Below are positions 8,557-48,283 of a stretch of DNA of 64,000 nucleotides, in pieces. The notes beneath the pieces are model-generated. The model did not search any database, had not been told where the DNA came from, and saw only the letters and a program-made list of their open reading frames with translations. Origin of the DNA: Patescibacteria group bacterium (GTDB taxonomy: Bacteria > Patescibacteriota > Patescibacteriia > JACQRZ01); assembly GCA_038065255.1 (NCBI GenBank), contig JBBTRI010000006.1, forward strand, positions 9,240 to 73,239. Reading direction: 5' to 3'. The position numbers were made by a program, and so were the translations under genes. The first letter of the stretch is position 1, and each line of letters opens with the position of its first letter.

Positions 8557-9030
8557 ATGAACGAAAAACAGGCTACAAATCAAATTGTGATCTATGAGCG
8601 TAAGGACGGCGCTCATTTTGAGGTGCGCTTAGTTGGAGAAACCGCATGGATGAATCAGGTACAGATTGGTAATCTCTTTGTAGTGAAAAAAGCCGCCATT
8701 TCTAAGCATATTAAAAATATTTATCAAGAAGGTGAGCTTGAGAGAAAACCAACTGTTTCCAAAATGGAAACAGTTCAGCGAGAGGGTGGGCGTATTGTTA
8801 AGAGAGATGTCGAATACTACAATCTAGATATGATTATTGCAATCGGGTATCGAGTAAATTCCCGCCATGCGACGAGATTTAGGATTTGGGCAACAAAAGT
8901 ATTAAAGGATTATATTGTTAAGGGATATTCGATCAACGAACGCCGCCTCAAAGAGGAGTACCAGCTAAAAATCAAAGATCTTGAGCGAACTATCGCAACA
9001 CTTCAGGCCGTACGCGATTCTCATAAATAA
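8557..9030 (+). CDS. RhuM-family (virulence protein RhuM-like) N-terminal domain protein
   Basis: IVIYE..DG...V.V..ETAWMNQVQIGNLF...ISKHIKNIYQEGEL...YNLDMIIAIGYRVNSRHATRFRIWATKVL; paralogue at 35175. Confidence 0.6.
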   Translation: MNEKQATNQIVIYERKDGAHFEVRLVGETAWMNQVQIGNLFVVKKAAISKHIKNIYQEGELERKPTVSKMETVQREGGRIVKRDVEYYNLDMIIAIGYRVNSRHATRFRIWATKVLKDYIVKGYSINERRLKEEYQLKIKDLERTIATLQAVRDSHK

Positions 9031-12993: not shown

Positions 12994-14412
12994 ATGGCCG
13001 AAGAGTTTAGGGCCATATATTTTTTTATGCACACACAGCAACAGTCGGGTGGAGGCTTTCATTCGCTTACCATCGCACCGACACTTTTAGAACGCATCAC
13101 GCATCTTGGATACACAACTCCAACCCCCATTCAGCATAAATCCATTCCGCCCCTTATTGAAGGGAAGGACGTATTGGGCATCGCCCAAACCGGTACCGGC
13201 AAAACACTGGCATTTGCAGTTCCTATGATTCAGCGTATTGCAAAACAGAAATGTCGAGGACTTGTGATTGTCCCTACGCGCGAGCTTGCATTGCAAGTGA
13301 ATGAGACATTTGAAAAAGTCGGCAAAAGCATTGGCTTGAGAACAGCTGTCCTTATCGGCGGAGCTGATATCAAGCGGCAAATAAAAACCTTACAGGCAAA
13401 TCCCCATGTAATCGTTGGAACGCCTGGACGTATCAATGACCACTTGGAACGCAAAAGCGTACACATGGAAAAAGTGAAAATATTGGTACTTGACGAAGCA
13501 GACCTTATGCTTGATATGGGATTTGAACCGCAGATCAAGCGTATTCTTGAAGTTGTCCCGAAAGATCGGCAAACAATGCTTTTTTCTGCTACCATGCCGC
13601 CGGCAATCCATACTATCGCTTCGCGATATATGTCATCTCCCTTGCGTATTGAAGTTGCCAAATCGGGTACGCTTGCCGAGAAAATACAACATGAGCTGCG
13701 CTATGTGTCGCAAACGTTGAAGGTTGAAGAACTTAAGAAAGTACTCCATGGAGCCTCAGGCACCACGATTGTATTTGTGCGCACCAAGCATACTGCAAAG
13801 AAACTGGCATATGCACTTCAGCTTGCGGGTATCAAGGCTGCGGAGATCCATTCAAATCGCTCTCTTGCACAGCGCCGAGCGGCTCTCGATGGATTTAAGT
13901 CAGGGAAATACCATGTGCTTGTGGCAACAGATATTGCGGCACGCGGGATAGATGTGATTGGCGTAAGTATGGTGCTCAACTTTGACTTGCCTGAGAATCC
14001 GGAAGACTATGTGCATCGCATCGGCCGAACCGGGCGAGCGGGCATGGCCGGACATGCGCTTTCTTTTGTTGCACCGGGTCAGCAAGGGCTTGTGAAACAG
14101 ATTGAAAGAGTAACGCGAACGAGCCTTCCGATTGCAGGAAACTCGGTAGCTGAGAAACTTCTTTCGAGAAAGCCTATTCTCAGAAAACCCATATCAAGAA
14201 AACCTTACCCGCAAAAATCGTTTACAGGAACATCGCACCATGGAAAACCTCGTAGCGAGCACGAGGTAACGCTCCATGAAATGGAGCATGCGTTTTCCAA
14301 AAAAAGTAAATCATGGAAAGGGCCGTCGGGTTCTCATGGTTTTGCGCGCGGAAAGAAGAATGGATTTCATAAGCAATCCGGATCCCCCAAGCAGCGCACA
14401 CATCGTTGGTAA
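12994..14412 (+). CDS. DEAD-box ATP-dependent RNA helicase with basic C-terminal tail
   Basis: Q motif GYTTPTPIQ, AQTGTGKT, PTRELA, DEAD, SAT, HRIGRTGRAG; alternative start ATG 13027. Confidence 0.85.
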   Translation: MAEEFRAIYFFMHTQQQSGGGFHSLTIAPTLLERITHLGYTTPTPIQHKSIPPLIEGKDVLGIAQTGTGKTLAFAVPMIQRIAKQKCRGLVIVPTRELALQVNETFEKVGKSIGLRTAVLIGGADIKRQIKTLQANPHVIVGTPGRINDHLERKSVHMEKVKILVLDEADLMLDMGFEPQIKRILEVVPKDRQTMLFSATMPPAIHTIASRYMSSPLRIEVAKSGTLAEKIQHELRYVSQTLKVEELKKVLHGASGTTIVFVRTKHTAKKLAYALQLAGIKAAEIHSNRSLAQRRAALDGFKSGKYHVLVATDIAARGIDVIGVSMVLNFDLPENPEDYVHRIGRTGRAGMAGHALSFVAPGQQGLVKQIERVTRTSLPIAGNSVAEKLLSRKPILRKPISRKPYPQKSFTGTSHHGKPRSEHEVTLHEMEHAFSKKSKSWKGPSGSHGFARGKKNGFHKQSGSPKQRTHRW

Positions 14413-37450: not shown

Positions 37451-37490
37451 GAGCCGCACATGCTTACCATGGCGGCGGTGTTTTGGTCTA
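37451..37490. terminator. Bidirectional hairpin between convergent genes
   Basis: agccgc...gcggcgg stem followed by gttttgg. Confidence 0.35.
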
Positions 37491-38735
37491 GTACACGCAT
37501 TTTTGTCTGAACGTGGTTGTGTAGCCGGACTGTTGCTTGAACCATTCTACACGCTCGGGATCGCCGATGGCTTTCTCGATGTTGTCGGAGAGCTTTACAA
37601 GGGAGATTCCATCAGCTTCGGTAGCCTTGATCACCAATGAGAGAGCTTTGAATCCCAGGTCATTGGTGAGGTTGGTTCCCCAGCCGAAGACGAACATGAT
37701 GCGCGTTGCGAATTGTTTGGCAAGGGCATTCATCGCTTTCACATCAAGACCGTCAGAGAATACGATGAGCTTTTCTCGTGCATCGATCCCGTAGAATGCA
37801 TACAGTGCGACGACCTGTTCTCCATATTCTGCCGGATCACCGGAGTCTTGGCGGGTGCCCTTCCATTGCACAGCACGTTCTTTGGTGAATACTTCACGGA
37901 AGAAGAATGGCGAACCATAGGTATCGGTGAGCGCCGTAGAGAGTGCTGATCCGTAGAGATCGTACCAGTCGTCAAGCAATTCTTGCTGAGTTGCGACAAG
38001 ATCATTGCCAAGCGATGCATACACCATCGAAAGTTCATGTGCATTGGTCCCAATGGCTTTGAGTCCATATTTCTTTGCAAGATACACATTCGAAGTTCCG
38101 ATGAATTGCGAAGTTGGTAGAGAGGCTGCAAGCGTACGGACAACATACTCCTGCCATTCTTTGCTGAATCTGCGCCGCGTTCCAAAATCCGAGAAGACAA
38201 TGAATTCATTTCCTTTAATAATCGCAATCTTATCGTCAAGGCGCTTTTTCCCTTCTTCGATACGAGTGCATTTCTCATCTTCAGTGAGTGAATCACACAG
38301 TGATTCACTATACAGCTCAGAAAGAATCGAAAGAGCGATTGTTTCCCAATACGTTACTTCTGCCCATGGGCCGCTGAACGTGAGCGTAAGCGTTCCGTTT
38401 TTTTCGACATCAAGCCGGTAACTCCCCAGTTTGAGTGTCGAAAGGAAGGCAAGATACTTCTTCCTGAAGAGCTTTACGCCATTGAGAGAAAGAGTTCTGA
38501 GGTATTCGATTTCATCATTAGACAGCGAGAGAGTGCGGACGTGGTCAAGCTCTTGCCGCAAACGTTGGATGTCAATGACGTTGCCCAGCTTCACCGACCG
38601 AGTTCTATTGGTCAGCGAAAATGTGACGCGTCGTTTGCCGTGCTTTAAGAAGATAAGCTGCCCCATCGTGAACTTATAGAAGTCAATGTCAAGAAGCGAT
38701 TGTATGATTGGTTCAGAACGAATTGTAAGGTGCAT
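37488..38735 (-). CDS. pncB: Nicotinate phosphoribosyltransferase
   Basis: N-terminal LLDIDFYKFTMGQ (NAPRTase D-x-Y-K-x-TM motif). The start was moved to the MHLTIRS ATG, which is preceded by GAGAGGAGAAAAAATA, because the track ORF has an 84-aa N-terminal overextension. Confidence 0.8.
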   Translation of the reverse strand: MHLTIRSEPIIQSLLDIDFYKFTMGQLIFLKHGKRRVTFSLTNRTRSVKLGNVIDIQRLRQELDHVRTLSLSNDEIEYLRTLSLNGVKLFRKKYLAFLSTLKLGSYRLDVEKNGTLTLTFSGPWAEVTYWETIALSILSELYSESLCDSLTEDEKCTRIEEGKKRLDDKIAIIKGNEFIVFSDFGTRRRFSKEWQEYVVRTLAASLPTSQFIGTSNVYLAKKYGLKAIGTNAHELSMVYASLGNDLVATQQELLDDWYDLYGSALSTALTDTYGSPFFFREVFTKERAVQWKGTRQDSGDPAEYGEQVVALYAFYGIDAREKLIVFSDGLDVKAMNALAKQFATRIMFVFGWGTNLTNDLGFKALSLVIKATEADGISLVKLSDNIEKAIGDPERVEWFKQQSGYTTTFRQKCVY

Positions 38736-38787
38736 TATTTTTTCTCCTCTCTCAACGTTCTTTTTGAAAAAAATATTGAGAGAGAAG

Positions 38788-38829
38788 GGGAGTAGAGGGA
38801 TTTGAAAGAGAATACATATCTCTACTCCC
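38788..38829 (-). terminator. Hairpin plus T-tract between the vWA gene and pncB (possible internal terminator/attenuator)
   Basis: gggagtagag ... ctctactccc perfect 10-bp inverted repeat followed on the minus strand by a T-rich run. Confidence 0.35.
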
Positions 38830-38836
38830 ATTGGGG

Positions 38837-39622
38837 TTAGGTGCCGAATCCTCCCAGAGCGCTGAAACCACCAGTCTTTATGTTGGAGAAGGCGGCAGCA
38901 TTCTGGCTGGCTCTGACGGCAGACTGAGAAACGAACTGGAAGCATTTCCGGATTTCGGAAGGGCTGTTGCCGGGCGTGAGGATGCACGCATCGGGAATGC
39001 CCATCTCCGCGAAAATGCGCCGGAAGTTGGTCTGTCCGTCATCGATGCCCATGGCGAGGATGAGGTGTTCCTCCTGGCGGAGCATGCTGTCTACGACATG
39101 TTTGATGGTTGCAGGCGTGTGCTGGGACGATCCGACATCTGCCCCATCCGTGATGATCACCGTGATCGTACGCGTCGGGACGTTGTTGTCGGCGAACTCC
39201 TTCTTTTTCGCCAGCGACCGGCCGAGGACGATCGCTGCTTTGTCGTAGAGAGGAGTGTTGCCGTAGGGGCGGAAGGTCGTGCCGGTAAGCGGCGCGATGT
39301 TGTCGATGAGCACGTATGGCGAGTAAGTGCCTTTGTTGAGCGCTTCGACGTGCATCAAGATGCCGCTTGCCTGCTTGGAATCCTTGAGAGCCTTCAGAGT
39401 GAGATTGGTTCCGTCGATGAGTACACGGGTGTTTCCCGCATGTTCGATCGAAGAGGAGTCATCGAGGAGGAGTGTGACGATGGTCGTTTCACTCGCCTCG
39501 ACGTCATCGACGCTGATGCCCATGGCGTCCTTGATCTGGGCACCGTAATCGATGATCTGGAGCGTCCGAAGGGCGTCTGCTGTGAGTTCGCCTTCATCCG
39601 CAAGTTCCTTGAATACGTTCAT
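38837..39622 (-). CDS. vWA-domain protein (TerY-like)
   Basis: MIDAS motif LLLDDSSSI ... T ... ITDGAD; Gly-rich C-terminus. The start was moved to MNVFKELADEG, which has AAGGGAG upstream and clears the upstream gene. Confidence 0.7.
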   Translation of the reverse strand: MNVFKELADEGELTADALRTLQIIDYGAQIKDAMGISVDDVEASETTIVTLLLDDSSSIEHAGNTRVLIDGTNLTLKALKDSKQASGILMHVEALNKGTYSPYVLIDNIAPLTGTTFRPYGNTPLYDKAAIVLGRSLAKKKEFADNNVPTRTITVIITDGADVGSSQHTPATIKHVVDSMLRQEEHLILAMGIDDGQTNFRRIFAEMGIPDACILTPGNSPSEIRKCFQFVSQSAVRASQNAAAFSNIKTGGFSALGGFGT

Positions 39623-39695
39623 GGTTGAGAGATCTCCCTTCTGTATGGTGTACGGGGAGGGACACCATACGATCGGCATCCCTCCCGCGGCGGTA

Positions 39696-40745
39696 TTACT
39701 TCCAGGTATCCATGGGATCGGTCGAGAGAACCACGTGCATGCCCGCTTTGGCATAGCGGTCTAGCGAACTTTCCGCCTGGACCGTATAGTCCACGACTCC
39801 CGGCACGACGACGGCGGAGGTGCAATCCCGAAGGATGTACACCTTCTCGGCGAGCGAACGGTCGCGCGCCATGATGTCGTCGAGCAGATCGTCGATGGAG
39901 CTCTTCACGCAGTGGCTTGCAGCCTGTCCTGCGATGATGAGCATGTCAGCGTTCGTGAGCTTGAGGAGGAGCTTGGTGTTGAGGCCTTCCGTGAGCGGCG
40001 CGCCGTCGTAGCGAGTCGTCACTTCAGGTTTGAACACGGAGTAGTTCTCGGTGAGCGGGTGCCCGCCCTTGATTTCCAGAAGCGATTGCCGGCCGCGCGC
40101 GAACGCGTGGAAAAGCCTCGCTTCATTGATCACGCCGGTGAGGGCATGCCCTTCCGTGCCGAGCAGGCAGTGGTAGGGCCAGAGGTAAAGAGTGTACTTG
40201 CCGGACTTTTCGAGTTCGGCGCAGTAGTGCTCCACCTGGTGATTCAGGAACGCCATCACTGCGCTTGGGTTCGCATCTCCGGCGATCCAGTTGGCAACAG
40301 CCGGATTGGGACGATAGATGCCCTGCCGGATCTCTTGCACCGTGATCATGGTGTGGGGGGACGGGTGCGAGCCGTCTTCCTTCAGCCAGAACGACGGGAA
40401 GAAGATCTGGAAGGGGTAGTGCGTATCGAGGGTGAGGGTGATGTCGTCGATGACGCCGAGATTGCGATAGATGAATTCCGCGAAGCGGACGTTGTCATCG
40501 ATCGCACCCCGGCCGCTGCGGGCCCCCACGTAGAGGGAGCCTTCCGGGAAGCAGAAGTCCTTCTGGAGGTCGATGCCGAGGACGTGAATCCGCGACTTTT
40601 TCACGGGCGCGATGGTGTGAGCAGCGCGCCAGCGCTCGGCCTCTTCGAAGACTTTCTGGGACGAGGGGTTGTATCCCCAATTCTCGGCATTCTTCGCCTC
40701 GAAGAGTGGTGGGATGGGGAGTGCGGGATTGGTCGATGTCTTCAT
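39696..40745 (-). CDS. pncA: Nicotinamidase-like cysteine hydrolase (isochorismatase superfamily), enlarged PncA homologue
   Basis: VLGIDLQKDFCFPEGSLYVG matches the PncA D-x-Q-x-D-F-C..GSL signature; DTHYP/SHPSPH metal-site His; catalytic Cys in AGQAASHCVKSS. Confidence 0.65.
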   Translation of the reverse strand: MKTSTNPALPIPPLFEAKNAENWGYNPSSQKVFEEAERWRAAHTIAPVKKSRIHVLGIDLQKDFCFPEGSLYVGARSGRGAIDDNVRFAEFIYRNLGVIDDITLTLDTHYPFQIFFPSFWLKEDGSHPSPHTMITVQEIRQGIYRPNPAVANWIAGDANPSAVMAFLNHQVEHYCAELEKSGKYTLYLWPYHCLLGTEGHALTGVINEARLFHAFARGRQSLLEIKGGHPLTENYSVFKPEVTTRYDGAPLTEGLNTKLLLKLTNADMLIIAGQAASHCVKSSIDDLLDDIMARDRSLAEKVYILRDCTSAVVVPGVVDYTVQAESSLDRYAKAGMHVVLSTDPMDTWK

Positions 40746-40765
40746 CGGGGGCGTCCTTTCGTGTT

Positions 40766-42637
40766 CTAGAGAGTTAGCGTGGTGATTTCATGTGCTGACA
40801 CGACTGCAATGCCGCCCTGGCAGGGAAGCAACGTGCAATCGGCATCAACAAAGTTTTCCGTGTCCGGGAATTCACGTGTTACGACCAGATCGGAACCTGA
40901 TTGCTCCACGCGCACGATACCCCTATCCGTTGGTACGAATAGGAATGGCCCAATCGCGCAACTTCCATTGAACGATGAGAGCCAGCTCGTGTTTGCGGCA
41001 TTGCCTTCCGCCTGCGCCAGGATTACTCCTCGCGCATTAATGAGATAGGTGCGCTGCATGAGCGTGCCGTACTCATCGGTACAGATCGTGAACCAACAGA
41101 GATCCTTAGAGAATCTGCAATTGGCATTGATGATCCGCCCTCTGATCTGAGGCAGACGAACGGAGTCGTTGAGGACTGAGCCTATTGGTTTTGCAATGAA
41201 GGCCTGCGCTAGTGTTCCTGCTCGGTAGAATCCGAATCCGAAAGCGGGTCCTGTCCAAAAGCGTGTGTAGCCGGCGAGTGCAGTGCCCAAGAGCCGTGGT
41301 TCATAGGTGTCATCTTTCAGTACGCGCCCTTGCTCAACCCAGTACAGACTCTCTCCGTCGGTTGCGAATTGCGTTTGTCCTTCGACTAGATCTGCCTGAA
41401 CGACTGAGCGTTGCCCTGACGGGCCATATCGCTCGATAATTCCTTTCGAAGCGATAATGGTATCTGTGCCCACTATGCCGTATTGCATGTCTGGAGTTGT
41501 TTTGCCGTTCACGATGAGTGTTCCTTGTTCACGCTTGAAAGCCCCCTGTTCGTAGGTGATCCATTGGAGCGTTCCGTTGCGTGCAGTTGCATGGATGATG
41601 ATCCTGGTCGTTTTGAAGATGCGTGTTGCTGTCACCGTTCCTCGAATGGTTATGTGTTCTTTAACAATCTGGCGTTGTGGTGTGATGCATGAAGGGCAGG
41701 TGCTTCGGGCGTGGAACAAGCTGCACGTCGGGCACTGCTGAAAGCGAAGAGTTGTGAGAAGCTGCTGAGGAAAGACCCCTCGTTTATCCCGCGTGAAGAT
41801 CTGAGTGAATTCGTGAATTAAGTCATCCGGCAGCATGGAGTAGTGGAGTGCTGGCTTGGGGTAGGCAATATCGGGATGAAAGACAGTCATACGTTCCGCA
41901 AGTCTCTCTCGGTGTCCCATTCTGTGCTTTGATTGTGATGGTTTGTGGATACCTCCATAGGGCCCGACATAGAGCAGAAGTTGCATGAGCATGCATGCAT
42001 ATGCATACCAGTCAGATGTTTCTCTATGGGGAGAGGACAGCATGATCGAATCTTGTATCGTACAGAGCATCGGATCGACGAATCGTTCCGTGAACATTCG
42101 GCAGAGATAGTGTCCAAACTGGAAACTATCCGTATCGATGATCATAGTTCCTGTTCCCTGTACGAGTATGTTGAGATCATTGAAGTCCCCAATTACAACG
42201 CCGATCGCATGGATTTTTTTGAGTGTTGCATGGAGATTTCGCATGATTGCCGGAATCACATCAACGGGGGTACTGCGGCGGAATGCTTTGTCGCTGTAGC
42301 GGATAAGCTCTGTCGCTCCTACGATTTTTTTCATGCTGTATCCCAGTATGCGATTGCTGCGCATATCAGTTGCGCTAGCCATTGGCGTAATGACTTCCGG
42401 TGGCAGGGATGTTGGAAATGCCATGAGTTTTGTCTGGTATTCTTCTAGACGCTCCCGTACAGCTCGCTGGATATCTGGTTGATTGGTAAAGTCGGGGTGG
42501 TCTGGCTGTTTGTAGAGTTTGAATACCAAATCATTTCCGATATCGTAGATGACTGCTTCACCTCCCTGGCCGATAATCCGCTTTGCTTCAAGCTTGAGTG
42601 GCTTGCCATTGAGATTGACGGTAGTCATTGCTCGCAT
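40766..42637 (-). CDS. Ser/Thr protein kinase with C-terminal zinc ribbon and large beta-rich domain
   Basis: Gly loop IGQGGEAVIY, catalytic VIGDFNDLNILV, DTDSF; CPTCSLFHARSTCPSC ribbon; about 300-aa C-terminal domain. Confidence 0.7.
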   Translation of the reverse strand: MRAMTTVNLNGKPLKLEAKRIIGQGGEAVIYDIGNDLVFKLYKQPDHPDFTNQPDIQRAVRERLEEYQTKLMAFPTSLPPEVITPMASATDMRSNRILGYSMKKIVGATELIRYSDKAFRRSTPVDVIPAIMRNLHATLKKIHAIGVVIGDFNDLNILVQGTGTMIIDTDSFQFGHYLCRMFTERFVDPMLCTIQDSIMLSSPHRETSDWYAYACMLMQLLLYVGPYGGIHKPSQSKHRMGHRERLAERMTVFHPDIAYPKPALHYSMLPDDLIHEFTQIFTRDKRGVFPQQLLTTLRFQQCPTCSLFHARSTCPSCITPQRQIVKEHITIRGTVTATRIFKTTRIIIHATARNGTLQWITYEQGAFKREQGTLIVNGKTTPDMQYGIVGTDTIIASKGIIERYGPSGQRSVVQADLVEGQTQFATDGESLYWVEQGRVLKDDTYEPRLLGTALAGYTRFWTGPAFGFGFYRAGTLAQAFIAKPIGSVLNDSVRLPQIRGRIINANCRFSKDLCWFTICTDEYGTLMQRTYLINARGVILAQAEGNAANTSWLSSFNGSCAIGPFLFVPTDRGIVRVEQSGSDLVVTREFPDTENFVDADCTLLPCQGGIAVVSAHEITTLTL

Positions 42638-43536
42638 ACCTCGTTTCTTTTTCCCAGAATCACCGTCGTATCATCCGGCAGCAACCCTGGATTTCTTGCA
42701 ATTGCTGTTCCGAGATTATTCATGCGGACAACATCTGTTGCTATCGCAGAAAGTCGGCGTCGAAGCGCATCACGATTCATCACGTAGCGTTCCTCAGTCC
42801 AGAATTGACTGACTGGTCCGATAGGTGAATCGGTTCCCGGAAGCATGTCGGATTCATGGCGCTGCAGGTGGGCTATTCCATCTGTTGCAAGAAGGAAATG
42901 ATGAAGATCATTGGTTGCTATCACTCGGTTGACAGTGAGAATGAGCGATTGTGGTGGCAGAGATGTTTTCACGAGACGATAAGCTAGGTAGGGCGGCGAA
43001 TTTGCTTCCGCTATTTCGAGCGGTAGGTGTTCGCCATTTATTACCATTGCGCCATCGCCAAGCGAAAAGAACGCAGCATGGGTTGCTGTCATGAGAACAC
43101 CGACAATCGTGAAGAGGAGATGGTCCTGCACAAAGATTGCACGATCCTCCACTTCCATACTGGTGATAAGTGCAGAGAGTTTTACACAGACACGCCCCGG
43201 TATTCCCTCGCGCCATTCCCAGTGATTTTGGTGATCAAAGAGGAGATGTTGGCTTTCCGGAGCGTAGTTGTTGAGCGCGCGCAGAACTTCACTGCATACA
43301 AGGCGCGCACCAAGCACTGCGCCAATTTCATTGTGGTTAGTAGTATTTTCATGTTGACTACCACTGCCGCACCCATCTGTTACGACCGCTATAGTTGCGT
43401 TGTGTTGATGTATGACACAGAAACCATCATGATTGTTTTTTCCCGATCGTATGTGATCACGTCCCGTTACTGATGCATGGGCAAATGTGAAAGGTAGGTG
43501 TGATTCAAGAAAGGTTTTTGTCGTAGACATTTTCAA
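42625..43536 (-). CDS. PP2C-family Ser/Thr phosphatase (PP2C_2-like)
   Basis: VTDGCGSG, ATDGIAHL and DDTTVI metal-binding Asp motifs; overlaps the kinase gene by 13 nt. Confidence 0.7.
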   Translation of the reverse strand: MKMSTTKTFLESHLPFTFAHASVTGRDHIRSGKNNHDGFCVIHQHNATIAVVTDGCGSGSQHENTTNHNEIGAVLGARLVCSEVLRALNNYAPESQHLLFDHQNHWEWREGIPGRVCVKLSALITSMEVEDRAIFVQDHLLFTIVGVLMTATHAAFFSLGDGAMVINGEHLPLEIAEANSPPYLAYRLVKTSLPPQSLILTVNRVIATNDLHHFLLATDGIAHLQRHESDMLPGTDSPIGPVSQFWTEERYVMNRDALRRRLSAIATDVVRMNNLGTAIARNPGLLPDDTTVILGKRNEVCEQ

Positions 43537-43622
43537 TGTACAGTTGCCGCATCGTAGAGATGCAGGTCTCAGAGCTTAGTAAGGTTTTCTGGTGGTTAAG
43601 TACTGAGATCTTCATTCTACAA

Positions 43623-43860
43623 GTGTACTAAGTACACTAACTAAGAGGCAAAAAATAATATGGAGACGTAAGGGAGGGGAGTGGTTTGTGATGCCTGCAA
43701 TTGAGATACTAATATTGTATTATATACACTAACTAAGAGGCGAAAAAATAAGTGGAAGAAGAAGCTATAGAGTGAAAAAAGAGATGGACAGACAGGAAAA
43801 ATGATAGAGTGGCAGTCATATAGGTGTATATAATACACTAACTAGGGATAAAAAAATAAA
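43623..43860. repeat. Three direct repeats (about 27 bp, spaced 92 and 109 bp) each preceded by a GTGTA(C/T)...(A/G)TACAC palindrome; candidate operator array
   Basis: tacactaactaagaggcaaaaaataa at 43633, 43725 and, as a variant, 43834; palindromes gtgtactaagtacac (43623-43637) and gtgtatataatacac (43823-43837). Confidence 0.6.
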
Positions 43861-43875
43861 TAGGGATAGGCACTA

Positions 43876-44592
43876 TCAGAGAATATCTACAAATTCGGGA
43901 ATGCGTTTTTTGAAGGTATAGAGTTCTGCGGGGCGGTTTGCCGTGCCTCGGCGTTTCTTTCCTGTTGCGCGGATAAGACCTAGTGAGAGTATTTTTTTGC
44001 GAAAGTTTCGCTTGTCAAGCTTGCGGCCGAGAATCACTTCATATACCGATTGCAGTTCGCTGAGTGTGAATTCTTTAGATAGAAGGCTATAACTGATGGT
44101 GCTATAGGCAAGTTTGCTTTTGAGGCGATCGATTGCTCGTGAGATGATTTCACTATGGTCATAGGCTAGCGAAGGAAGTTTTTTGATGGGAAACCAATCA
44201 ATTCCTGCATAATCAGCTGTCGTTTTTAATGACACATTGGTGCTTGGTATGAGTGCAAAGTAGGCGACGGATACTACGCGTCCGCGAGGGTCACGGTCTA
44301 CACGGCCAAATGTATAGAGCTGCTCGAGGTAGACGTCTTTGACGTTTGTTTTTGCTCGGAGATGGCGGAGGGCTGCCTCGTCGGCTGATTCGTCCGGCGT
44401 AATAAGTCCGCCGGGTATGGCCCACATGTTGACATAGGGTTGCCGTGTCATTTTGATAAGCAGTACTTTGAGTTGGCCATTCTGGATGGTAAAGATGACG
44501 ATATCAGTTGCAAGTATTGCGTGGACAAATTGTTTGAGTGGTGCGATGGGCATATACTTAGTGTCTAACATACACATACTAGCATATCTCAA
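43876..44592 (-). CDS. nrtR: NrtR-family transcriptional regulator (Nudix-like effector domain + C-terminal wHTH)
   Basis: Nudix-like WAIPGGLITPDESADEAALRHL, plus C-terminal ELQSVYEVILGRKLDKRNFRKKILSLGLI characteristic of the NrtR DNA-binding domain; the start may be a downstream Met. Confidence 0.7.
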   Translation of the reverse strand: MRYASMCMLDTKYMPIAPLKQFVHAILATDIVIFTIQNGQLKVLLIKMTRQPYVNMWAIPGGLITPDESADEAALRHLRAKTNVKDVYLEQLYTFGRVDRDPRGRVVSVAYFALIPSTNVSLKTTADYAGIDWFPIKKLPSLAYDHSEIISRAIDRLKSKLAYSTISYSLLSKEFTLSELQSVYEVILGRKLDKRNFRKKILSLGLIRATGKKRRGTANRPAELYTFKKRIPEFVDIL

Positions 44593-44739
44593 AACCCTGT
44601 CAAGAGGGAAGTCTGAGAATTATTGAGAAAAAGGAAATAGTACTGTATTTATGCGATAAAATACCACCTCTTCTTTTGTAGGAGTCTTTTAATCAATCCC
44701 AATTTTTGGTAGAGTAGGAAGAGTTATACACACTCACCT

Positions 44740-46224
44740 ATGACCATCCTTTTTCCTGGCAGGCACCATATTCTTACGTCATTTCAACATGATACACTTA
44801 AGTCGCTTGTGTACCACGGCTGGAAGGGCAAGAAGATACGTCGCATTGTCATTGCTGTCACATCAGCAAACCACGAAAATACCCGCCGCAATCCCTTGCC
44901 GCTCCATCTGCGCACTATGGCAATTCAAGAATGTTTTCGAGATATCGGGTGTGAAGTAAAAATCTATCCAATACCGGATACTGCGCCTACCAATGAATAC
45001 GCCCAGTATCTTCTTTCGCATATTCAGTACCAGGGAGGGCAACTGCTTCGGCCATCGAATACGCTGTTGGCATGCTCGACACCGGATGTCATCCGTTTGT
45101 TTACCAAGCTTGGTTTTAGCCATCATTCCATGGAGCTCGTTTCAGCAGCAACCAATAGCTATTCGGTGTCGCGCCCGTTTGAAGTTATCAATTCTCTCGT
45201 ACAAGCTGGCACAAACTGGAGAAAGGATCAAATATGGCGAATGTATGCCCATCTTTCATCCCAGCAGATTTATGATACGTATAATATTGGTGATCTGATC
45301 GTCGAGCTCTTTTCTGATGCCCTTCTCAATGATGATGCCGATATCACTGAAACGAGGAATTACCAGACGTATGCACTCTCAATGGACTCTGTTATACATA
45401 TCAAATTTCAGGACATCGAACCGTTTATAGTCGAAGGTAAAATTGTTGATGTGGGATGTTCAACCGGTTCATTGGTTCGTTTGCTTGCGAAGCATTTTAA
45501 CGAATCGGATATTATCGGTATCGAAGCAGTACGTCGTTTCTATGAATACTGCCGCTCGCAGGAGTATGATAACCCCTTTGTTTTTTTCTATAGAAGAAAT
45601 ATCACCGACCAAGTATTCAAAGATCACTCCATTAACACGTGTATTTATTCATCCGTTCTTCATGAAGTGTATTCGTATCTTGGTGAAAAACTTCTTCATA
45701 GGGTTCTTCACAACACGTATAAACAGCTTAAAAAAGGAGGGAGAATCATTATCCGAGATGTTGTGGGGCCTGAACACCCCAATTCAACCGTTCTTTTATC
45801 TCTCAATGAAAAAGACGGCAAAGCGAGTGGTGCAATCGGACAGCTTTCAACTTATGCAAAATTTTTCAGATTCGCTGAGGAATTCATTCCACGAAAAATC
45901 AAGTATACTGTCGTAACACGAGGAGGAGTGAGGTATATCAAGCTTCGCTTGCAAGATGCGTATGAATACTTGAGTAAAATGACGTATGTCGACAACTGGA
46001 AAAGCGAACTTCATGAAGAGTTTGGGTTTTATTCGTATACGGGTTGGGTGAAACTTCTTGAGCGAATGGGGTTCCGTATTGTAAATGGCTCAAAAACTTT
46101 TTCTAATGAATATATCATTAAAAACAAGTATGAGCCGCGAGCTACACTCTATGTGGCACAAGGATCATCATTGCGGCAGATCGACTATCCGCCGACAAAT
46201 ATGATACTCGTCGGTGAAAAATAA
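44740..46224 (+). CDS. Fusion protein: NadM-like (archaeal-type NMN adenylyltransferase-like) nucleotidyltransferase domain + class I SAM-dependent methyltransferase domain
   Basis: N-terminus GRHHILTSFQH and VTSANHENTRRNPLPLHLRTMAI ... YPIP resemble NadM GRFQPFHxGH / GSxx...RNP...ER.MI / YPIP; C-terminus VDVGCSTGSLV, IIGIE, IYSSVLHEV, LKKGGRIII MTase motifs. Confidence 0.5.
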   Translation: MTILFPGRHHILTSFQHDTLKSLVYHGWKGKKIRRIVIAVTSANHENTRRNPLPLHLRTMAIQECFRDIGCEVKIYPIPDTAPTNEYAQYLLSHIQYQGGQLLRPSNTLLACSTPDVIRLFTKLGFSHHSMELVSAATNSYSVSRPFEVINSLVQAGTNWRKDQIWRMYAHLSSQQIYDTYNIGDLIVELFSDALLNDDADITETRNYQTYALSMDSVIHIKFQDIEPFIVEGKIVDVGCSTGSLVRLLAKHFNESDIIGIEAVRRFYEYCRSQEYDNPFVFFYRRNITDQVFKDHSINTCIYSSVLHEVYSYLGEKLLHRVLHNTYKQLKKGGRIIIRDVVGPEHPNSTVLLSLNEKDGKASGAIGQLSTYAKFFRFAEEFIPRKIKYTVVTRGGVRYIKLRLQDAYEYLSKMTYVDNWKSELHEEFGFYSYTGWVKLLERMGFRIVNGSKTFSNEYIIKNKYEPRATLYVAQGSSLRQIDYPPTNMILVGEK

Positions 46225-46230
46225 TAATCT

Positions 46231-47130
46231 ATGAAACGCATTGCCATACTTGGAGCAGGGGAGCTTGGAAGCTGTATTGGGAAGCTTCTTCAAAAAAATA
46301 AAAAATTATCAATTGAATGGTGGGATGCCAATCCTCAAAAGGTGCCCAATCAAAAACCTCTCGCAACACTTGTCTCTTGTACAGATTTTTTGTTTCTCTG
46401 TGTACCGTCATGGGTGTTTCGCAAGGCGCTCGAACAGGTGCGGCCGCATCTCAAAAAAACGACCATTGTTGTTTCATTTGCAAAAGGTATTGAGCGGAAA
46501 ACACAGCTCACTATGGATGTGCTTTTGAATGAAGTATTGCATCGAAACCAACCCACTGTTCTTGTGAGTGGACCCATGCTTGCGGAGGAGTTGGAAATGA
46601 ATCTTCCCGCAGGAGGCATTCTTGCTGCAAAAAATAGGCGTGCGTACGAAAGAGTTGCCGCATTATTTGCACATACGCCAATCACATGCTGCTATTCGTC
46701 CGATGTCCGTGGCGTTGCGCTTGCGGGAGTTTTGAAAAATATCTATGCAACGGCTTTGGGTGCAGTTGACGGTTTGGGGTTGGGAATGAATGCAAGAGGG
46801 CTTGTTATTGTGCGAGCGGCAGATGAAATGGCGCGGATACTTCCTTTGCTTGGCGGCAAGGCTGCAACAACTTATTCATTGGCAGGTATCGGCGATTTGA
46901 TTGCAACCGGTTCAAGTAACTATTCGAAAAATTACAGTGTCGGTAAAGAACTTGCTCTGTCCGGCGTGTGCGGTATTGAAAGTGAAGGAAAATCTTCCAT
47001 TGCAGCATTTGAATCGATGCTTGGCGGCAAGGCAGCAACATTCAAGCTGTTTCAAGTTGTCAAAGCTATTTTGTCATGCAAAAAAGACGCCCGCTCAGCA
47101 TTAAGCCGTTATTTTAAGAAATGTGAATAA
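46231..47130 (+). CDS. gpsA: NAD(P)H-dependent glycerol-3-phosphate dehydrogenase
   Basis: N-terminal ILGAGELGS Rossmann motif; GVLKNIYATALGAVDGLGLGMNARG. Confidence 0.7.
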   Translation: MKRIAILGAGELGSCIGKLLQKNKKLSIEWWDANPQKVPNQKPLATLVSCTDFLFLCVPSWVFRKALEQVRPHLKKTTIVVSFAKGIERKTQLTMDVLLNEVLHRNQPTVLVSGPMLAEELEMNLPAGGILAAKNRRAYERVAALFAHTPITCCYSSDVRGVALAGVLKNIYATALGAVDGLGLGMNARGLVIVRAADEMARILPLLGGKAATTYSLAGIGDLIATGSSNYSKNYSVGKELALSGVCGIESEGKSSIAAFESMLGGKAATFKLFQVVKAILSCKKDARSALSRYFKKCE

Positions 47131-48283
47131 TCAAACCGCTGCACTCGTGCTTGATGTTGGCACATCGAGTATCAAGGCATTTGTATTTGATCAGACATAT
47201 CAGTGTTTGGCTCAAAGCGAACGAAAGCTATCAATATGTCATCCAAAACGTGCACATGTTGAGCAAAATCCAAAGGAACTTTTACGCTTGAGCGCCACAG
47301 TTCTTAAAACAGCTGTACGTTTATCGGGTATTCATCCATCGCGCATGGTGATGGGAATTACGAATCAGCGAGAAACAACCATTCTATGGGATGCCAAGAC
47401 TGGTAAGTCGGTCTATCCAGCAATTGTATGGCAGGATAGGCGAACGGAAAAACAATGCTATTCGCTCAAACGCCATGCATCTGATGTCCGTTCAAGAACG
47501 GGCCTTGTGCTTTCTTCTTATTTTTCGGCATCCAAAATAGCATGGGTACTTAGAAATGTTCCAAAAGCTCAGACTCTCATACGTCAAAATCGCCTACTGT
47601 TTGGCACTGTTGATTCCTGGCTGCTATGGAACTTTGTGGAAGGCAGGCCTCATCTGACAGATTTCACTAATGCAGCACGAACATTGCTTTTTAATATTCA
47701 GACGCTTTTCTGGGATACAAAACTTCTCGGTATATTCGGTGTGCCGCGAGAGCTTATGCCAAAGGTTGTTCCATCGCAGTACGAGTATGGCAGAGTAAAA
47801 AAAGAAATTCTTGGGTATTCTATTCCACTTCTCGCTGTATGTGGAGACCAGCAATCTGGTATGGCGGCAGCTGGCAGTAAAAAAGGTACAACGAAAGTAA
47901 CATATGGCACTGGTACGTTTGTGATGCAATCTCTCGGTACGATATTTGCAGCTCAAAAGAATTTTTTTACCACGCTCATACCCAATCATGGTACGCCGTA
48001 TTATGCACTCGAGGCAAAGATTGACGTTGGAGGCAAGGAAGTTGAACGGGCGCTCCATAGTAAAAAGAAGCTTATTGCACAGCTTACACGCATTGCATGC
48101 TTAGTGGATAAACGTCTTAAAGAATTACCCTTACAGCCACGCGTACTTGTGATAGACGGGGGTGTAACGCGGGATGGGCTCATGAAAACTATCCAGGAGC
48201 AGGTTTCGGGAATCCCCATACAGCCACTCTCGACGTTTCATGGCACAGCTCTTGGTATAGCAAAACTCCTTCTTGACAGGTAG
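47123..48283 (+). CDS. FGGY-family carbohydrate kinase, glycerol-kinase-like (short)
   Basis: ITNQRETTILWDAKTGKSVYPAIVWQDRRTE, GTVDSWLLWN, GDQQSGMAAAG, TYGTGTF. Confidence 0.7.
   Translation: MNNQTAALVLDVGTSSIKAFVFDQTYQCLAQSERKLSICHPKRAHVEQNPKELLRLSATVLKTAVRLSGIHPSRMVMGITNQRETTILWDAKTGKSVYPAIVWQDRRTEKQCYSLKRHASDVRSRTGLVLSSYFSASKIAWVLRNVPKAQTLIRQNRLLFGTVDSWLLWNFVEGRPHLTDFTNAARTLLFNIQTLFWDTKLLGIFGVPRELMPKVVPSQYEYGRVKKEILGYSIPLLAVCGDQQSGMAAAGSKKGTTKVTYGTGTFVMQSLGTIFAAQKNFFTTLIPNHGTPYYALEAKIDVGGKEVERALHSKKKLIAQLTRIACLVDKRLKELPLQPRVLVIDGGVTRDGLMKTIQEQVSGIPIQPLSTFHGTALGIAKLLLDR

Follow-up and report, generated by a model that had tools for sequence, protein, structure and literature searches.

The 64,000-nt stretch of Patescibacteria DNA analyzed here (hereafter the window) carries on its minus strand a gene for the Nudix-type regulator NrtR, followed by an operon in which nicotinamide adenine dinucleotide (NAD) salvage genes are interleaved with genes for a PP2C phosphatase, a kinase-like protein and a predicted von Willebrand factor A (vWA) domain protein. 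The spacer between nrtR and this operon contains three direct repeats, each built around a GTGTA/TACAC palindrome, and a fourth such box lies at the nrtR promoter. We consider it very probable that the three spacer repeats and the promoter box are NrtR operators acting as repressor sites. Judged by its regulator, its symmetry and core, its position before NAD genes and its conservation, the array is a member of the NrtR-operator family. Because this kind of element is known, the basic finding will not surprise a specialist; the new details are a directional unit in which a T-run lies 11 nt upstream of the box (T-run-N11-box), and the placement of a triad resembling TerY-P under an apparent ADP-ribose sensor.

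Candidate NrtR operators around nrtR

The spacer is 345 bp long (43531-43875, minus strand) and runs from the nrtR stop codon at 43876 to the ATG of the PP2C gene at 43530, both genes lying on the minus strand; an initial annotation of this DNA had placed the array correctly between the two. The three direct repeats with GTGTA/TACAC palindromes that it described were recovered by a repeat search as a single family of co-oriented 51-nt copies at 43614-43664, 43706-43756 and 43815-43865, the latter two 76% and 65% identical to the first and the spacing 92 and 109 nt. Within the 64 kb, the 27-nt core of the repeat occurs only at 43633 and 43725 (none expected from shuffles), the two positions already reported; the A/G substitution said to separate these copies is actually a 1-nt insertion or deletion (GGC-A6 versus GGCG-A6).

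A search of the window for GTGTA-N5-TACAC with at most one mismatch gave four sites against 0.88 expected, a number reached in no shuffle. We number the spacer boxes as units 1-3 in the direction of transcription (minus strand). The box of unit 1 (43824-43838) is GTGTATATAATACAC, or GTGTATTATATACAC on the operon strand, a perfect 6-3-6 palindrome with no mismatches and a score of 26.3 bits; that of unit 2 (43715-43729) is TTGTATTATATACAC, or GTGTATATAATACAA on the operon strand, with one mismatch and 24.8 bits. Unit 3 has the perfect box GTGTACTAAGTACAC (43623-43637; GTGTACTTAGTACAC on the operon strand; 0 mismatches, 21.0 bits), whose palindrome extends to 8-1-8, AGTGTACT-A-AGTACACT. The fourth box, absent from the initial annotation and located at the nrtR promoter (44561-44575), is GTGTCTAACATACAC, or GTGTATGTTAGACAC on the minus strand, with one mismatch and 23.7 bits. 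These scores come from a weight matrix built on 168 sites from other loci only, by which the four window boxes reach 21-26 bits, the next best site 11.8 and the shuffle maximum 15.7.

Most NrtR motifs are 21-bp palindromes with the core GT-N7-AC (Rodionov et al., 2008; PMC2330246). All four window boxes hold GT-N7-AC inside GTGTA-N5-TACAC, and their TTA/TAA flanks are symmetric to 3 nt on each side, giving the 21-bp form TTAGTGTA-N5-TACACTAA, which fits the published core and length. The regulator encoded next to them (43876-44553, minus strand; 225 aa plus stop) has a Nudix domain and a C-terminal NrtR winged helix, both above their Pfam cut-offs (NUDIX 3.1e-14, NrtR_WHD 6.7e-26), and its closest solved structures are BtAraR and Shewanella NrtR (PDB 5bs6, 9e-46; 3gz5, 5e-41). 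It scores 170 bits against the NCBIfam equivalog NF050029, under the 400-bit cut-off, and is a member of the family rather than of that equivalog. Its Nudix box is degenerate, RHLRAK where active hydrolases carry REUXEE, as in characterized sensor-type NrtR proteins (PMC2330246). The protein is 100% identical to an entry from a Patescibacteria metagenome-assembled genome.

The window was compared with 160 NrtR loci (NrtR 44-70% identical), the first 80 taken from species-representative genomes and the other 80 from metagenomes. In the first 80 loci, boxes with at most one mismatch numbered 27 in the 15.7 kb within 200 nt upstream of nrtR and 48 in the remaining 988 kb, an enrichment of about 35-fold; 23 of the 80 have a box at the nrtR promoter. 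Over all 160 loci (1.46 Mb) the exact box occurs 81 times, against 0-5 times for each of 29 permuted-arm palindromes. The palindrome was also to be looked for before other NAD genes, and it is enriched there in related loci: boxes away from nrtR are intergenic, and at a distance of 20-60 nt nine of them precede pncB, two nadA, and others a NAMPT-like gene, pnuC, nadE and pncA, the same genes as make up published NrtR regulons. The box accompanies nrtR in Patescibacteria, Chloroflexota, Planctomycetota, Myxococcota, Acidobacteriota and contigs labeled DPANN. Two close relatives, L001 (GCA_964411735.1) and L005 (from sample SRR22388306), have NrtR proteins 87% identical and the same gene order; in both, the three spacer boxes, the promoter box and the T-runs are all kept, and the inter-box sequence and distances are changed, centre-to-centre spacings being 92/109 bp in the window, 76/93 in L001 and 52/71 in L005. 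That these are candidate NrtR boxes tying the operon to NAD/ADP-ribose sensing, as first proposed, is supported at the level of sequence by the true NrtR, the motif fit, the enrichment across loci and this footprint.

Co-occurrence cannot name a binding protein with certainty, and a different DNA-binding protein might recognize the palindromes and merely co-occur with nrtR, NrtR itself binding elsewhere. We regard this as very improbable: the box tracks nrtR itself across phyla, fits the GT-N7-AC core and 21-bp symmetry of the NrtR family, stands at the nrtR promoter in 23 of 80 loci and precedes exactly the genes of published NrtR regulons, and no other regulator gene is conserved in the related loci. 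The idea that the repeats lack any regulatory role, being a selfish or dispersed element or duplicated by chance, has almost nothing to recommend it. Units 2 and 3 do have an identical 17-nt stretch, GCCTCTTAGTTAGTGTA, suggesting past duplication or conversion; yet the check for a dispersed element found no further copy of the repeat or box within the 64-kb window, all copies are positionally conserved in the two relatives, related units recur in about 20 lineages, and the association with nrtR and NAD genes is strong.

The nrtR gene has a strong predicted promoter of the sigma-70 type, TTGACA-16-TAGTAT with TG-n before the -10 (10 of 12 matches in the promoter scan), its -35 at 44598-44603 and its -10 at 44576-44581 on the minus strand. 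The fourth box, which we call O0, abuts the -10 and overlies the predicted transcription start, and is kept in L001 and L005; the layout of promoter and box is conserved in L001, L005, L006, L008 and L009, and across the whole data set of other loci the frequency of TTGACA-like hexamers is highest 22-25 nt upstream of a box. O0 is a candidate auto-repression site with a classical layout. Auto-repression by NrtR through a promoter palindrome has been demonstrated experimentally in mycobacteria, at the site GTTTTCGA-N7-TCGAAAAC (PMC6800001). Mycobacterial NrtR represses its own and neighboring NAD genes through that palindrome, as is predicted for 44561-44575; its half-site differs, however, its operator measures 23 bp against 21 bp here, and it acts from a single site in a divergent promoter region on targets of de novo synthesis, in contrast to the salvage genes of the window.

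The start of nrtR is most likely the ATG at 44553, because the upstream ATG runs into a stop codon in L001. The public annotation of this NrtR (231 aa) begins six codons before 44553 (44554-44571), at an ATG within the promoter operator. With a start at 44553, the leader of nrtR is about 16 nt long and lacks a Shine-Dalgarno sequence.

Several observations on the wider distribution of these boxes stand apart. Four loci labeled Woesearchaeota/Nanobdellati (L010, L020, L025 and L040) have NrtR homologs 46-50% identical and GTGTA-N5-TACAC boxes before nadA and FAD-oxidoreductase genes; the DPANN-labeled occurrences reflect either a regulator and operator common to both domains or mis-binned contigs. 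Elsewhere, whole NrtR-box modules are duplicated before several operons of one genome: in L042 a module of about 110 bp with two boxes, one of a TTGACA type followed by one of a T-run type (8750-8860 and 14290-14400), and in L103 (1057, 2266 and 3838) and L105 (214 and 3065) a module of about 80 nt.

A directional T-run unit downstream of nrtR

Along the direction of transcription each unit of the array reads as a T-run (6-7 T), 11-13 nt and the palindrome, and the direct repeat is longer than the palindrome because this one-sided T-run part is added to it. All three runs are on the minus strand. That of unit 1 (7 T on the operon strand, 43850-43856) lies 11 nt upstream of box 1 and 19 nt past the nrtR stop codon; those of unit 2 (6 T, 43743-43748) and unit 3 (6 T, 43650-43655) lie 13 nt and 12 nt upstream of their boxes.

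The same unit is found in other loci. With a T-run defined as five or more T and the distance measured from its end to the box, 182 non-identical boxes gave a peak at 11 nt (27 cases), with 10, 7 and 6 cases at 10, 12 and 13 nt and 0-5 at each other distance. A phased T-run precedes 32 of the 45 boxes lying at most 450 nt downstream of nrtR, every one oriented as nrtR, compared with 5 of 78 nrtR-promoter boxes and 8 of 54 boxes elsewhere (13 of 132 together; Fisher p = 9e-15). Among the 21 loci with both kinds of box, none of the 22 promoter boxes has one, and the chance background is 1.4% of positions in the same spacers. The unit occurs in about 20 sequence-distinct lineages, from Patescibacteria and other phyla. 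The phased T-run is statistically solid; it is not mentioned in Rodionov et al. (2008; PMC2330246).

A terminator scan of the operon strand found no intrinsic terminator after nrtR, and the 45 nt before each T-run of the window have folding energies of 0 to -3.5 kcal/mol and form no stem that abuts it; we rejected the T-runs as intrinsic terminators, as no hairpin precedes them. A consensus scan of the operon strand likewise found no canonical promoter at the three units, and its sole match in the spacer, TATACA-18-TATCAT, is not conserved; by inspection, the most promoter-like of the three is unit 3 (TTGCCT-18-TACACT). The spacer had been called a promoter region, a label that is not established, and the units may instead act on polymerase reading through from the nrtR promoter.

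The next start codon follows the end of the T-run-N11-box unit by only 12-17 nt in at least five lineages (L009, L111, L140, the L145 family and L154); it belongs to pnuC in L009, to a PP2C gene in L111 and to a nadA-like gene in the L145 family. A Shine-Dalgarno sequence lies between box and start codon in the L145 family and L154, and the right arm is poor as a -10 (TACACC, TACACG, CACACG) in L111, L140 and the L145 family. A unit so close to the start codon leaves no room for a promoter, and transcripts in these five lineages must therefore come through nrtR. The most compact arrangement is in the L145 family (L145, L147, L153, L165, L127, L144 and L161, from soil metagenome), where only about 60 nt separate nrtR from the 385-aa nadA-like gene: a T8 run is followed after 11 nt by the box TTCGTGTA-N5-CACACGAA, and the Shine-Dalgarno sequence and ATG come next.

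Among the NrtR operators described by Rodionov et al. (2008; PMC2330246) are tandem sites before Shewanella prs-nadV and, in Synechocystis, one that lies between nrtR and nadE. The array shares with the operators of that study a regulator with Nudix and winged-helix domains, a 21-bp palindrome with a GT-N7-AC core, sites adjoining nrtR and NAD salvage genes, several sites per region and, as expected effector, ADP-ribose. It differs in its Patescibacteria host, in having three sites in directional T-run-N11-box units, in a spacer with neither terminator nor canonical promoter, and in an operon that adds the PP2C/kinase/vWA triad. We found no literature naming both NrtR and Patescibacteria, and the array offers the first sequence-level view that we found of NrtR gene regulation in these tiny, mostly uncultured bacteria, which must scavenge NAD precursors.

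Between box 3 and the PP2C start, the leader (43547-43608, minus strand) contains two conserved hairpins at 43567-43608 and 43547-43565, which match inverted repeat I2; RNAalifold on four sequences gave 14 pairs, five of them with compensatory changes, and the hairpins are kept in L001, L002 and L005. The PP2C start has no Shine-Dalgarno sequence and is preceded by a conserved ACATTGAAAAT. On the operon strand the array part of the spacer (43623-43875) is C-rich and G-poor, with a C/G ratio of 2.7, against 2.5 in L001 and a weaker 1.3 in L005; the skew is absent in L006 and L089. This distribution led us to reject a C-rich, G-poor array as a general feature for Rho loading; C-richness here might aid Rho loading or reflect lineage composition only. 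A 65-aa open reading frame (ORF) at 43641-43838 on the operon strand, starting inside box 1, is spurious, being unconserved and reading GTG TAA at that point in L001, and plus-strand mini-ORFs after AAGAGG motifs were also set aside as antiparallel to the operon and unconserved.

Possible mode of action

NrtR, a non-catalytic Nudix sensor with a winged helix, would by homology bind the 21-bp palindrome as a dimer at low ADP-ribose, and rising ADP-ribose, a breakdown product of NAD, would take it off the DNA; such release is documented for Shewanella and Synechocystis. At O0 (44561-44575), which covers the transcription start, bound NrtR would repress nrtR itself, and at the three downstream operators it would hold the PP2C/kinase/pncA-like/vWA/pncB operon off. 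We suggest that the bound regulator may halt RNA polymerase arriving by read-through of nrtR, with the stop made tight by three such blocks in a row, and that the T-run 11-13 nt upstream of each box would leave a stalled polymerase on a weak U:A hybrid, so that release is favored. A roadblock is the most coherent reading because the stretch from nrtR to the operon contains no terminator and no canonical promoter: from this architecture, polymerases from the nrtR promoter would run into the spacer, and NrtR bound there would therefore act at least partly as a roadblock. As the main mode of action, a roadblock with release at the U-run is the account we tentatively prefer, at somewhat less than even odds.

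When polymerase stalls at a DNA-bound protein, its active site comes to rest about 14 bp before the obstacle, as in work with EcoRI-Q111. Given this distance, and an operator edge 3 nt outside GTGTA, the RNA 3' end would fall within the U-run. Repressor roadblocks are documented for PurR, GalR, CcpA, CodY and LacI and are leaky when single (PMC10310618, PMC4132739); LacI at O2, for example, lets 25-40% of polymerases pass (PMC4132739). Such leakiness of single roadblocks would be the reason for several units in series. The array would resemble these systems in that a repressor downstream of a promoter stops elongating polymerase; in the known cases, however, removal of polymerase is mainly Mfd-dependent and no phased U-run is described, whereas here the T-run lies at a fixed 11 nt from the operator. 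Like intrinsic terminators, the array puts 6-8 U in the transcript at the expected halting point of polymerase, directly past the stop codon of a gene, but the U-run is not preceded by a hairpin; the part of the hairpin would have to be played by an operator with bound protein 11 nt downstream, and termination would then depend on ADP-ribose. A bolder idea, which we hold to be somewhat unlikely, is that the T-run-N11-box unit is a hairpin-less ligand-gated terminator in which ADP-ribose opens read-through, with three serial gates here and single gates in about 20 lineages. If the T-run does mark repressor-assisted release of the transcript, it would be a simple metabolite-controlled terminator, possibly of use as a design principle and of interest for organisms whose transcription-termination machinery is reduced; should it be only a promoter element, the array is ordinary though well documented.

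Several points count against our interpretation. The boxes in related loci were gathered with the pattern of this window, which makes the core of their logo circular and leaves positions, flanks and target genes as the independent evidence, and the genes in those loci are crude ORF calls. A published roadblock using a phased U-run was not found in the literature searched, and some T-run units read as promoters (L088, L154 and unit 2 of L005): the T-run could be an UP element or a surrogate -35 and not a release signal.

This last point leads to a different account, in which each repeat is a weak NrtR-controlled promoter, the T-run and the bases TTnnCn next to it supplying an UP element and a -35, and the -10 being provided by the right arm TACACT or by a hexamer immediately past the box; NrtR would repress by occupying the spacer and -10, and the array would be three tandem promoters. 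We treat this as a real possibility, though one we lean against. It differs from the roadblock only in where the operon transcript starts, and both could hold. A constraint on -35/-10 spacing would equally give a constant distance from T-run to box, and candidate promoters can be read in L088 (TTGACA-17-TACACT), L107 (TTGACA-18-TACACT), L154 (TTGTCT-16-TACAAT) and unit 2 of L005 (TTGTTA-16-TATAAT), as well as in unit 3 of the window, as TTGCCT-18-TACACT or TAGTTA-18-TAGAAT. The fifth position of the putative -35 is enriched in C (18 of 25), and in other loci there are boxes with real TTGACA hexamers at 7 nt and 2 nt upstream, in the same registers. On the other side, none of the three units was picked up as a promoter by the consensus scan of the operon strand, the conserved G is missing from nearly every putative -35, and the right-arm hexamer lacks the T at -7 in unit 1 of the window (TACACC), L111, L140 and the L145 family. 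The units of L111, L140 and the L145 family moreover end 12-15 nt before a start codon, in the last case with a Shine-Dalgarno sequence directly after the box; the true nrtR promoters of the same loci have no phased T-run (0 of 22), and the promoter-like hexamers fall at differing units among the three close relatives.

The initial annotation described the three sites as regularly spaced and possibly bound cooperatively or looped; a repressosome of this kind, needing regular, helically phased spacing, is improbable. Multiple boxes per spacer are conserved (three in the clade of the window, two in L006, L101, L121 and L042), and tandem NrtR sites are known in Shewanella, but the spacing is irregular and unconserved in the window and its two relatives and does not come in multiples of 10.5 bp, the same operon goes with a single box in many lineages, and a directional T-run found only downstream of nrtR is left unexplained. 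We give very little credence to an RNA-level element, in which the palindromes would fold in the read-through transcript as an attenuator, processing site or small RNA, with no need for a DNA-bound protein. Each box can form a hairpin of 5-8 bp, folding of the spacer RNA is somewhat better than that of shuffles (z = -2.3) and a conserved two-hairpin leader follows box 3; however, an E-value search of 36-46 kb matched no Rfam family, the arms do not covary but are invariant, the U-run lies upstream of the hairpin and not downstream, which makes a terminator in neither direction, and the same box is also found at promoter positions that are not transcribed, where it overlaps the -35, spacer or -10.

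The downstream operon and neighboring genes

The operon (37488-43530, minus strand) interleaves a TerY-P-like triad of PP2C, zinc-ribbon kinase-like and predicted vWA proteins with pncA-like and pncB genes. Its first gene (42625-43530) encodes a PP2C-type phosphatase (Pfam PP2C_2 6.2e-16, 59 bits against a cut-off of 24), whose start, ATG TCT ACG, is conserved in L001 and L005. The second (40766-42637) encodes a kinase-like protein of 623 aa, with a CPTC...CPSC zinc-ribbon motif after the kinase-like region and a long C-terminal part; it scores 20.9 bits with Pfam Pkinase (cut-off 31.7), matches kinase regions of NCBIfam lanthionine synthetases weakly and has no sequence match in PDB. A pncA-like, nicotinamidase-like protein of the isochorismatase fold follows (39696-40745, 349 aa), its matches to Pfam Isochorismatase (1.9e-3) and NCBIfam PRK11609 nicotinamidase (3e-6) both under their cut-offs. 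The last gene, pncB (37488-38735), encodes a nicotinate phosphoribosyltransferase (NCBIfam NF003704, 417.6 bits against a cut-off of 379; Pfam NAPRTase) and has the Shine-Dalgarno sequence gagaggag before its ATG.

Between these last two genes, a 261-aa protein (38837-39622) has no Pfam match. PDB sequence searches with it and with the pncA-like protein gave nothing useful, and it was identified by fold search alone: an AlphaFold2 model (pLDDT 89) finds integrin I and vWA domains as its top Foldseek matches (E 1e-7), and residues D54, D55, S56, S58, T123 and D159 of the metal ion-dependent adhesion site (MIDAS) are invariant. The model shows a predicted vWA domain with a MIDAS motif, TerY-like in type. 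The protein is about 50% identical across Patescibacteria, Chloroflexota, Planctomycetota and one cyanobacterium.

With PP2C, CxxC kinase-like, nicotinamidase-like, vWA and PncB proteins all found, the label of an NAD-salvage/TerY-P operon given at the outset is reasonable. The TerY-P triad, going by the account of Anantharaman et al. (2012) cited in PMC11090510, comprises vWA, PP2C and a Ser/Thr kinase with a zinc ribbon, and on that account the operon is alike in encoding PP2C, a kinase-like protein with CxxC...CxxC and a predicted vWA protein with a MIDAS motif. Measured against the same account it differs in that its genes are interleaved with pncA-like and pncB genes and apparently under NrtR, that its kinase falls under the Pfam cut-off, that it has no PADLOC match, and that no tellurite-resistance or restriction genes lie nearby. 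Searched with PADLOC models at E <= 0.01, the operon proteins gave no match, a weak one of Nudix type to NrtR itself being all that came up, and we rejected a defense-system annotation on this ground. The order nrtR, PP2C, kinase, pncA-like recurs in 12 loci, which hold one to three boxes after nrtR; as the PP2C proteins of these loci are just 29-70% identical, the arrangement is an old one. A phosphatase/kinase/vWA triad apparently wired to the same ADP-ribose sensor as pncA-pncB gives a testable hint about the stimulus of the triad.

On the other side of nrtR, the gene at 44740, initially taken for nadM-like, is by Pfam a SAM-methyltransferase and not a NAD gene; glycerol-3-phosphate dehydrogenase and FGGY sugar kinase genes follow (44740-48283), in the same order in L001. 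The methyltransferase gene is divergent from nrtR, and the only box before these non-NAD genes is that of the nrtR promoter, 165 nt away. The G+C content is 52-55% over the kinase, pncA-like and vWA genes (38000-42000), against about 43% in the rest of the window, which suggests a different origin of this block or a constraint on its composition.

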